Part shown: positions 4,770 through 5,427 of the stretch, one piece after another
How positions within the stretch are numbered: position 1 is the first letter of the stretch
Layout of the letters: each line of letters opens with the position of its first letter
Virus record (IMG/VR): IMGVR_UViG_2529292836_000012
Coordinates: 1-7,363 of that record
Direction: 5' to 3' (one strand)
DNA from: a virus
Lineage: Duplodnaviria > Heunggongvirae > Uroviricota > Caudoviricetes
Length of the DNA stretch: 7,363 nucleotides
Made by a program: the position numbers and the translations under genes
Notes under the pieces: generated by a model
Seen by the model: the letters and a program-made list of their open reading frames with translations, nothing else
Databases searched by the model: none
Told to the model about the DNA's origin: nothing

Positions 4770-5045
4770 TCACCTCAACAATGGAAAGATTTTTGTGACG
4801 TTCCCGCGTGCGCGTATCACCAGCACGCAGAACAGCAGATTAAAAAACACTTCCAGCCAGCCCGTTGCTAACGGGCGACCACACAGATAGCTGAGGGGCG
4901 CAAAGGCATACAGCAGCATCAGCAGCCAGGCCAGCCATGACACCAGCGGTTTATGTCTGGAATCACGGCGACGATAAAAAAAGAGCGTCAGCACGATAAC
5001 CGTGCATAACGCCACATTCAGCAATCCGGGAAGGTTACTTAACAT
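4770..5045 (-). CDS. small membrane protein (91 aa, about 3 TMDs); holin or antiholin candidate
   Basis: MLSNLPGLLNVALCTVIVLTLFFY…LVSWLAWLLMLLYAFAPLSYL…LEVFFNLLFCVLVI, with GGAGGAGG upstream. Its start overlaps the upstream gene's stop by 11 nt, and its own stop TGA sits inside the endolysin RBS. Confidence 0.6.
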   Translation of the reverse strand: MLSNLPGLLNVALCTVIVLTLFFYRRRDSRHKPLVSWLAWLLMLLYAFAPLSYLCGRPLATGWLEVFFNLLFCVLVIRARGNVTKIFPLLR

Positions 5046-5427
5046 TGCCGCCTCCTCCACCCCGCAGGCGGGAGAACACACCGGACACCAGCGATGCAAT
5101 ATCCTGCTGGTGGATGAACGAGAGAATCTTCACCGACACCACCGAGACCAGCACCGCGCAAAGCGCATCTGCTGATGTACCGTCATACCCTGTTTTTGAT
5201 GCAATCCAGGCTGACAGCACACGCGCTCCCAGCACACCGACAATAAACGACACCAGAAAATGTGCCACCACGCGCCAGACTGAAAGTGACTGCGGCATCG
5301 TTGCCACAAATAACGCCCCGGCGAACGCGCCAAACACAATCCCGAAATCCATTCCGGTAAACAGCCCGAATACCGTCGCCCCGCCGAGCGCCGCAGCCGT
5401 ACCGGAACCGGATAAGGGTTCAGACAT
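5035..5427 (-). CDS. multi-TMD membrane protein at the head of the lysis cassette (holin-like)
   Basis: 130 aa from the ATG at 5427-5425, with AGGAG 8 nt upstream. It has 3-4 predicted TMDs rich in G/A/F and a charged C-terminus (RLRGGGGGNVK). It lies directly upstream of, and is coupled to, the lysis genes. The holin call is by position and topology only. Confidence 0.55.
   Translation of the reverse strand: MSEPLSGSGTAAALGGATVFGLFTGMDFGIVFGAFAGALFVATMPQSLSVWRVVAHFLVSFIVGVLGARVLSAWIASKTGYDGTSADALCAVLVSVVSVKILSFIHQQDIASLVSGVFSRLRGGGGGNVK

Follow-up and report, generated by a model that had tools for sequence, protein, structure and literature searches.

A co-inherited pair of overlapping membrane-protein genes as the predicted holin function of an enterotoxigenic Escherichia coli prophage

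Two overlapping membrane-protein genes lie directly ahead of the endolysin gene in a 7,363-nucleotide stretch of a Caudoviricetes genome (IMG/VR record IMGVR_UViG_2529292836_000012, positions 1 to 7,363; hereafter, the window). The first encodes a protein of 130 amino acids (gene 1) and the second a protein of 91 (gene 2). We show that the two genes belong to separate holin-annotated families that are inherited together across several phage lineages, and we argue that the pair very probably supplies the holin function of the cassette, that is, large membrane lesions through which a soluble endolysin is released. How the work is divided between the two proteins is weighed below, where we tentatively favor the 130-amino-acid protein as the hole-former.

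Organization of the lysis cassette

The cassette comprises three genes and a set of closely packed translation and termination signals:

5427 (ATG) to 5037–5035 (TAA), minus strand: gene 1, a glycine-rich membrane protein of 130 amino acids
5045 (ATG) to 4772–4770 (TGA), minus strand: gene 2, a membrane protein of 91 amino acids
4767 (ATG) to 4390, minus strand: endolysin gene, 125 amino acids, Peptidase_M15_4, L-alanyl-D-glutamate peptidase type
5440–5436, minus strand: Shine-Dalgarno sequence of gene 1, AGGAG, 8 nt before the ATG
5058–5051, minus strand: Shine-Dalgarno sequence of gene 2, GGAGGAGG, inside the gene 1 coding sequence
5035–5045, minus strand: overlap of genes 1 and 2, ATGTTAAGTAA, exactly 11 nt, containing the start codon of gene 2 and the stop codon of gene 1
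4776–4770, minus strand: Shine-Dalgarno sequence of the endolysin gene, GAGGTGA, with the TGA stop of gene 2 within it
5468–5453, minus strand: terminator-like hairpin GGGCTGCTGGTGGCCC with a T-run, directly 5' of gene 1
4378–4349, minus strand: strong intrinsic-terminator-like hairpin, CCCCGG...CCGGGG followed by TTTTT, ending the three-gene unit

Both membrane-protein open reading frames (ORFs) are present where the original prediction, made from the letters of the window, had placed them, and the 11-nt overlap and the gene 2 stop codon inside the endolysin ribosome-binding site are confirmed as well. The glycine codons in the tail of gene 1 (...RGGGGGNVK) also encode the gene 2 Shine-Dalgarno sequence GGAGGAGG. 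With the Shine-Dalgarno, start and stop signals of the three genes nested in this manner, all three proteins are expected to be made together and in a fixed ratio; the tight coupling of the lysis genes to the endolysin gene that had been proposed is upheld by these overlapping signals. The hairpin directly upstream of gene 1 would fit a late operon read by antitermination, and the phage HK639 has annotated terminators at the equivalent place.

Chromosomes of enterotoxigenic E. coli (ETEC) match a 1.8-kb region of the window at 99.8% identity, and we identify the window from its sequence as an ETEC prophage related to the Shiga toxin 2e (Stx2e) phage phiP27. In the ETEC chromosomes, RefSeq names gene 1 'putative holin' (WP_001297664.1), gene 2 'phage holin family protein' (WP_000950576.1) and the endolysin 'M15 family metallopeptidase'. 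The phiP27 genome shares approximately 92% DNA identity and carries the orthologous cassette as L28 ('holin'), L29 ('holin') and L30 ('endolysin'); the gene order, the 11-nt overlap and the M15 endolysin are all shared with the window, and gene 1 is 85% and gene 2 98% identical at the protein level. Unlike the window, phiP27 has stx2e between its tRNA genes and the cassette, and the region from the endolysin gene to the downstream lipoprotein gene differs.

The labels attached to the pair elsewhere conflict, running from 'holin/holin' to 'holin-antiholin' to 'antiholin/holin'. The two genes are 'holin1' and 'holin2' in phage SerU-LTIIb (KU052038.1), and both are 'putative holin-antiholin' in Klebsiella phage Seifer (Center for Phage Technology). 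For the Burkholderia phages KS5, KS14 and KL3, Lynch et al. (2010; PMC3091744) labelled the downstream gene 'holin' and its upstream neighbor 'putative antiholin'. The Burkholderia and Seifer role labels are curators' judgements or guesses, not experiments. The cassette is therefore already known: it is annotated in RefSeq, described in phiP27 and recognized by specialist annotators. The locus in the window is an ordinary, intact copy of this known module, with nothing unusual about it.

Both proteins belong to holin-annotated families

A check against holin-family hidden Markov models (HMMs), which the original prediction had proposed, places both proteins in holin families of Pfam and of PHROGs. 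Gene 1 matches Pfam PF16931 (Phage_holin_8) with 82.6 bits against a cut-off of 26.4 (E-value 3.3e-23), residues 1–124 aligning with profile positions 1–121 of 121, and PHROG 198 'holin' with an E-value of 2.8e-42. Gene 2 matches PF05449 (Phage_holin_3_7, formerly DUF754) with 76.9 bits against a cut-off of 25.4 (E-value 1.2e-21), residues 10–87 aligning with profile positions 2–79 of 80, and PHROG 217 'holin' with an E-value of 1.5e-38. Both are thus full-length members of their families. The endolysin, a member of Pfam Peptidase_M15_4, matches PHROG 465 (E-value 4e-75). Homology of either membrane protein to a non-lysis protein had been named as grounds for doubt; in Pfam and NCBIfam, neither has any match to a non-lysis family at E-values up to 1. 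The label 'YjjB (DUF3815)', given by JGI to some gene 1 homologs, is likewise unsupported by Pfam at that threshold.

In dozens of distinct alleles, the ratio of nonsynonymous to synonymous substitution rates has medians of 0.13 (gene 1), 0.18 (gene 2) and 0.08 (endolysin gene). These low ratios place both small genes under purifying selection and argue that they are real genes and not chance ORFs. A diverse PF05449 profile, used for an exhaustive HMMER search, gave 528 representatives at 50% identity, and the best 150 of these are all 65–131 amino acids long. The C-terminal tail of PF16931 (R-G-G-G-...) is conserved throughout the family, and its coding region is dual-coding, both in the window (5035–5061) and in a second locus in which it was located (L169, 1744–1754). 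Since the GGN codons of this tail spell the Shine-Dalgarno sequence of the PF05449 gene, the apparent protein conservation of the tail may in part reflect a constraint at the nucleotide level.

The two genes are inherited as a pair

The two genes lie side by side in each of 158 complete close relatives (IMG/VR and GenBank), always with an overlap of 11 nt; the few close relatives that seem to be missing a partner are cases in which the contig ends. Searches with our own HMMs extended this to 368 loci with 260 distinct pair sequences, among which there are no true orphans. The order is PF16931 followed by PF05449 in all 260, with a spacing of −10 to +17 nt. The only exceptions among the 368 loci are three truncations at contig ends and a partial duplication in SerU-LTIIb, whose sole 'orphan' PF16931 gene (KU052038.1; locus L003, 1341–1765) is part of a local duplication consisting of holin1a and a 43-bp fragment identical to holin2, then tRNA genes, 5' of a complete holin1/holin2/endolysin set.

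The pair is retained at much greater distances. At approximately 40–48% identity, it is kept in the lambdoid phages mEp390 and HK639, in Yersinia phage vB_YpM_44 and in Klebsiella prophages, and the 11-nt overlap itself recurs in HK639 and in Pectobacterium phage MA11. PF16931 is the upstream partner in every distant phage tested with Pfam (Cronobacter ENT39118, Salmonella 118970_sal3, Edwardsiella EPP-1, the Klebsiella Casjensviridae KPN N137 and Seifer, and Burkholderia KL3). In MA11, the upstream partner is an unannotated ORF that our own PF16931 HMM recognizes. Four more distant contexts found through the protein database, a Paraburkholderia prophage among them, have the same gene order, and a scan of species-representative genomes returned three loci. 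A lack of conservation in related phages, which had been raised as a test of the idea, is not what we find: the pair is present in every relative examined. By this distribution the pair behaves as an evolutionary unit in gamma- and betaproteobacteria, in prophages and lytic phages, and in at least three phage families, with lambdoid, Casjensviridae and P2-like phages among the lineages that carry it. Adjacent membrane-protein genes that are always co-inherited, the pattern taken as the mark of a two-component holin, are seen in all 260 distinct pairs.

Several sequences in this collection call for a comment of their own. Two rare ORFs, P0025 (219 amino acids) and P0094 (217 amino acids), fuse PF16931 to PF05449 through a frameshift in the glycine run and overlap (...SRLRVEEAAMLSN...), and the truncated proteins P0119 and P0120 are listed alongside them; each fusion is known from one sequence and is probably a frameshift or a sequencing error, not a genuine fusion. 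In GenBank PP818812.1, named 'Actinobacillus phage vB_Apl-pPE4', the cassette is approximately 91% identical at the nucleotide level to that of the E. coli prophage, and a 2.7-kb contig binned into a 'Bacillota bacterium' metagenome-assembled genome (JAEWMQ010000075.1, locus L175) encodes a gene 2 homolog with 78% identity. The hosts named in these two records look questionable, with contamination, mis-binning or a propagation-host issue as possible causes.

The endolysins behind the pair look soluble

Five unrelated endolysin architectures follow the pair: the M15_4 peptidase of the window, GH108 with PG_binding_3, GH19, a GH24 lysozyme, and PG_binding_1 with a muramidase domain. Recombination thus falls beyond gene 2 and leaves the two small genes joined. 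No N-terminal hydrophobic segment is found in any of 16 endolysins (that of the window and 15 partners in other lineages), whose N-terminal regions have a maximum hydropathy over 17 residues no higher than 1.4, and all of them look soluble and cytoplasmic. This speaks against a pinholin working with an endolysin that carries a signal-arrest-release (SAR) domain, and soluble endolysins instead need a holin that makes large holes. The cassette has no further conserved membrane protein, from which we infer that the holin function resides in one or both of the two genes. Each encodes a small membrane protein with at least one transmembrane domain (TMD), from a lysis-cassette gene next to the endolysin gene, as is expected structurally of the functional class.

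The least probable reading gives one of the two proteins a role outside lysis, for instance in superinfection exclusion or another accessory membrane function, with its gene hitch-hiking in the cassette. It could appeal to the 'putative' status of both Pfam holin families and to the literature, which yielded no direct lysis assay of either protein. We regard it as very improbable, because an accessory gene should have been lost or swapped in some lineages, whereas none of the 260 pairs is without either partner, because overlapping translation signals embed both genes in the stretch from the late promoter region to the endolysin gene, and because the pair occurs in the strictly lytic Casjensviridae as well as in prophages.

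Membrane topology

Gene 2 encodes three hydrophobic helices, at about residues 5–24, 33–52 and 63–77, matching the three TMDs that had been proposed. Over 22 diverse members of the family, the net charge is −0.7 at the N-terminus, +3.4 in loop 1 and +2.6 in the C-tail, and this acidic N-terminus, basic first loop and basic C-tail indicate an N-out/C-in orientation. Gene 2 thereby has the class I holin arrangement (three TMDs, N-out/C-in, basic C-tail), and the class I size and topology attributed to the smaller protein in the original prediction is borne out by a strong positive-inside signal throughout the family. The first loop contains an invariant histidine and the C-tail motif A-R-G-N-V an invariant G-N-V; the invariant motifs of PF05449 on the cytoplasmic side are an R-x-G-x-R-H-[KR] loop and A-R-G-N-V, with H31 and R80-G81-N82-V83 as the residues in gene 2.

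The topology of gene 1 is more ambiguous with respect to class I, with three or four membrane helices, so that '3–4 TMDs' was a fair description. Its N-terminus is acidic and lacks lysine and arginine, and its C-tail is weakly basic. The AlphaFold2 model has four helices (7–24, 28–43, 50–79 and 85–122) at a mean predicted local distance difference test (pLDDT) score of 56, and that of gene 2 has three at 60; as both models are of low confidence, their helix counts alone were used. Among 15 diverse members of the gene 1 family, the first ~28 residues are essentially free of lysine and arginine, the start M-x-[E/D]-P is conserved, an aspartate in the turn between helices 1 and 2 is nearly invariant, and the C-tail is basic (net +2.1). 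Helix 1 is weakly hydrophobic, with a mean hydropathy of 1.3 and 63% glycine, alanine, serine or threonine. The N-terminus is likely periplasmic or topologically mobile. A dual-start motif like that of lambda S107/S105 or phage 21 S71/S68, where two in-frame start codons a few codons apart yield a longer antiholin carrying one more positive charge, is absent from both genes: gene 1 begins MSEP and gene 2 MLSN, and neither a second methionine nor any lysine or arginine stands near the N-terminus of either, in the window or in relatives.

A published toxin-release experiment re-read by primer mapping

One published study bears on function. In two porcine Shiga toxin-producing E. coli strains, the 130-amino-acid 'holin' downstream of stx2e (WP_032083190) was replaced by a kanamycin cassette, which abolished the extracellular Stx2e induced through the SOS response by enrofloxacin; the 130-amino-acid gene alone on pUC57 restored release, and the same plasmid raised release in two non-responder strains (PLoS Pathog 2025; PMC12571312). 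The paper makes no mention of a second holin and says that no endolysin is encoded downstream (PMC12571312). We found no other relevant experiment on the pair in the literature, and none on the 91-amino-acid protein.

Mapping of the primers places the 3' homology arm at window positions 4985–5034 with one mismatch, and both arms match phiP27 exactly (L001, 3000–3049 and 3443–3492; window equivalent 4985–5477). From these positions, the deletion also removed the Shine-Dalgarno sequence and the first 11 nt of gene 2, and gene 1 therefore acted in the complementation without normal expression of gene 2. Among the loci retrieved, five (phiP27 and four others) match both arms exactly; each has gene 2 and an M15 endolysin gene immediately downstream, and the statement that an endolysin is lacking probably reflects the RefSeq name 'M15 family metallopeptidase'. 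On this reading, the experiment shows that the 130-amino-acid protein promotes release without normal gene 2 expression and that extra copies increase release. These effects are hard to reconcile with a pure antiholin role for gene 1. Moreover, the published 'holin' knockout also disabled the neighboring gene, with an endolysin probably encoded downstream, so its result reads differently from the way in which it was presented.

Division of labor between the two proteins

The original prediction had left open which protein is the holin, naming a holin with an antiholin or a two-component holin as possibilities, and this caution is justified. Both proteins fall in holin-annotated families of Pfam and PHROGs. 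We rank the readings as follows: a 130-amino-acid hole-former, the reverse assignment, an obligate heteromeric holin and, last, the non-lysis role dismissed above.

The assignment that we favor, though with less than even confidence, makes the 130-amino-acid protein the hole-former, with the 91-amino-acid protein as a dedicated partner that either regulates timing or acts as a second holin. The sequence shows that gene 1, gene 2 and the endolysin gene share the late transcript as a tightly packed unit. Both small proteins would then insert in the inner membrane and build up harmlessly until, at a programmed time, large holes allow the folded 14-kDa M15 endolysin, which has neither a signal nor a SAR sequence, to reach the peptidoglycan. 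The PF16931 protein may supply the hole-forming activity, and the PF05449 protein may set the timing as an antiholin-like regulator or a co-holin; this division of roles is the least certain step of the scheme. We prefer this order of roles because the only functional data (PMC12571312) point to gene 1.

Several points weigh against it. Stx2e was measured by enzyme-linked immunosorbent assay in cultures grown overnight, without lysis curves, and the gene was carried on a high-copy plasmid; an over-produced membrane protein could possibly cause non-specific membrane damage, and the deletion may have been polar on the endolysin gene. It is the 91-amino-acid protein, not the 130-amino-acid one, that has the textbook class I features and the position against the endolysin gene, and the Burkholderia curators called PF05449 the 'holin' and PF16931 the 'putative antiholin' (PMC3091744). 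The low confidence of both AlphaFold models (pLDDT 56 and 60) counts here as well.

In the reverse assignment, the 91-amino-acid protein is a canonical class I holin and the 130-amino-acid protein an antiholin or timing regulator acting by heterodimerization, perhaps through a topologically dynamic, SAR-like first helix. We consider it unlikely, while placing it ahead of the other alternatives. Gene 2 lies directly against the endolysin gene, its three TMDs have the N-out/C-in orientation with a strong positive-inside signal (loop 1 +3.4 and C-tail +2.6 over the 22 members), its Pfam name falls in the Phage_holin_3 group together with that of P2 Y (Phage_holin_3_2), and the labels in KS5, KS14 and KL3 run this way (Lynch et al., 2010; PMC3091744). 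Helix 1 of gene 1, with its 63% of small residues and its hydropathy of 1.3, resembles SAR domains. Such domains are used by known holin regulators. Without a dual-start motif in either gene, a separately encoded regulator would also be needed. Yet extra copies of the 130-amino-acid gene raised rather than lowered toxin release, and the gene complemented a mutant lacking the start codon and Shine-Dalgarno sequence of gene 2, which is unexpected of a pure inhibitor (PMC12571312). Profile comparisons, described below, detect no homology linking PF05449 with lambda S105 or with P2 Y, or PF16931 with P2 LysA (hhalign probabilities of at most 2.5%).

Somewhat less likely still is an obligate two-component holin, in which the hole is hetero-oligomeric and neither protein alone gives properly timed lysis; a parallel would be the two-protein holins reported from some Gram-positive phages. 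The absence of orphans among 260 distinct pairs from several phage families and two proteobacterial classes suits this reading, as do the tight translational coupling, which implies a fixed stoichiometry, and the recombination of endolysin modules, which always breaks after gene 2 and never splits the pair. The invariant residues of PF05449 (H31 and R80-G81-N82-V83) cluster at the cytoplasmic face, as expected of a protein-protein interface. Against it, the 130-amino-acid gene alone complemented the mutant without normal gene 2 expression, and close alleles of the two genes have been shuffled relative to each other (identity to phiP27, for example, is 85% in gene 1 and 98% in gene 2), so that any interface is not allele-specific at that distance. 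Non-essential antiholins are also stably co-inherited elsewhere, and co-occurrence by itself is no proof of a joint requirement. More doubtful again is an extension of this idea in which the pair forms an obligate heteromeric holin and the glycine-rich, weakly hydrophobic, lysine- and arginine-free helix 1 of gene 1 is a topological switch that moves into or out of the membrane and so gates the holes. If true, timing would depend on two genes in a manner unlike the dual start of lambda and phage 21, RI/T of T4 and LydA/LydB of P1, and the mechanism would be portable across at least five endolysin classes.

Whichever protein forms the holes, the pair would control the time of bursting of the E. 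coli cells that carry the prophage and, in the sister phage phiP27, the release of Shiga toxin 2e as well, which makes it relevant to toxin release when antibiotics are given. The cassette occurs widely, in Escherichia, Salmonella, Klebsiella, Yersinia, Burkholderia and others. The two genes are never separated and always accompany soluble endolysins, and they are best treated as a single unit in both research and engineering.

Comparison with known lysis systems

By analogy, the pair functionally resembles lambda S105/S107 and P2 Y/LysA, each a holin with a second membrane species that affects timing. The likeness to lambda is one of outline: the gene of a small N-out/C-in protein with three TMDs precedes and overlaps a soluble endolysin gene, and a second protein species closely associated with the first sets the timing, as one of the pair may do in the window. 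In the window, by contrast, the second species has its own gene and belongs to an unrelated family, with no dual start and no detectable sequence similarity. P2 likewise combines its holin with a separately encoded membrane protein of several TMDs that affects the timing of lysis; P2 lysA, however, lies 3' of the endolysin gene, whereas gene 1 stands before gene 2. P2 Y belongs to Phage_holin_3_2, and LysA is below the cut-off for every Pfam family.

Comparisons with hhalign, run with shallow as well as deeper profiles, do not extend these likenesses to ancestry. PF05449 (an alignment of 147 sequences) compared with P2 Y and lambda S105 gave probabilities of 0.1–1.0%, equal to shuffled controls, PF16931 (a profile of 15 sequences) compared with P2 LysA gave 0.3–0.4%, and all comparisons of PF16931 with PF05449 and with characterized targets stayed at or below 2.5%, the same as shuffled controls. 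A 'superfamily III' link was not reproduced by these profile comparisons, and membership in the lambda S, P2 Y or P2 LysA families is unsupported, with neither profile similarity nor a dual start. Two further leads were rejected: the 'new type of holin-endolysin cassette' of Acidovorax phage AP1 belongs to a different family (holin 2_3, with one TMD), and a paper on a Salmonella pullorum holin concerns Phage_holin_3_6, not 3_7.

The closest counterparts in other lineages have the same two families in other surroundings. In Burkholderia KL3, gp35 is PF16931 (E-value 3e-30) and gp34 PF05449 (E-value 3.5e-27), ahead of the endolysin gene as in the window. In the P2-like Burkholderia phages (KS5, KS14 and KL3), the pair sits between tail gene X and the endolysin gene, the slot that Y occupies in P2; gene 2 identity to the window is approximately 23%, and the genes abut without the 11-nt overlap. 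Unlike the window, these phages have an endolysin with PG_binding_1 and muramidase domains and a tail and lysis gene block of the P2 type. In Klebsiella phage Seifer, gp35 and gp36 are the same family pair, directly before a soluble endolysin that is followed by a membrane protein and an annotated outer-membrane spanin (o-spanin). Seifer differs from the window in being one of the strictly lytic Casjensviridae, with proteins of 140 and 110 amino acids and a GH108 plus PG_binding_3 endolysin.

Neighboring features of the prophage

Past the terminator of the endolysin gene lie two small coupled ORFs, the TGA of the first falling 1 nt before the ATG of the next:

4257 to 4144, minus strand: 37-amino-acid protein with a C-terminal TMD, PHROG 4493 (unknown function)
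4142 to 3960, minus strand: 60-amino-acid lipoprotein (51 amino acids from the second methionine), lipobox LVGC, PHROG 7528 (unknown function)

The mature part of the lipoprotein has 30 amino acids with three cysteines, and its phiP27 ortholog has been described as the shortest known o-spanin (Kongari et al., 2018). The 64-amino-acid inner-membrane spanin (i-spanin) that Kongari et al. assigned to phiP27 (L001, 4242–4436, with a TTG start) is antisense to a better-looking ORF of 90 amino acids. The 64-amino-acid ORF is absent from the window, where no canonical i-spanin is present.

Immediately upstream of the cassette are three tRNA genes (5620–5869, minus strand), Arg-TCT, Arg-TCG and one with a CAT anticodon that is called Met by ARAGORN and Ile by RefSeq. 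The corresponding slot holds tRNA genes and stx2e in phiP27 and tRNA genes in SerU-LTIIb. In the window it contains no toxin gene, and terminator-like hairpins are found instead at 5606–5587, 5508–5482 and 5468–5453. Near the start of the window (1–2264), the terminase large subunit of 682 amino acids is encoded from 2264 to 216 on the minus strand. A near-identical ETEC chromosome (locus L002, 9522–9801) has a tnpA gene of the IS66 family directly after the terminase gene, where head genes would be expected, and the prophage may accordingly be interrupted or defective despite its intact lysis cassette.

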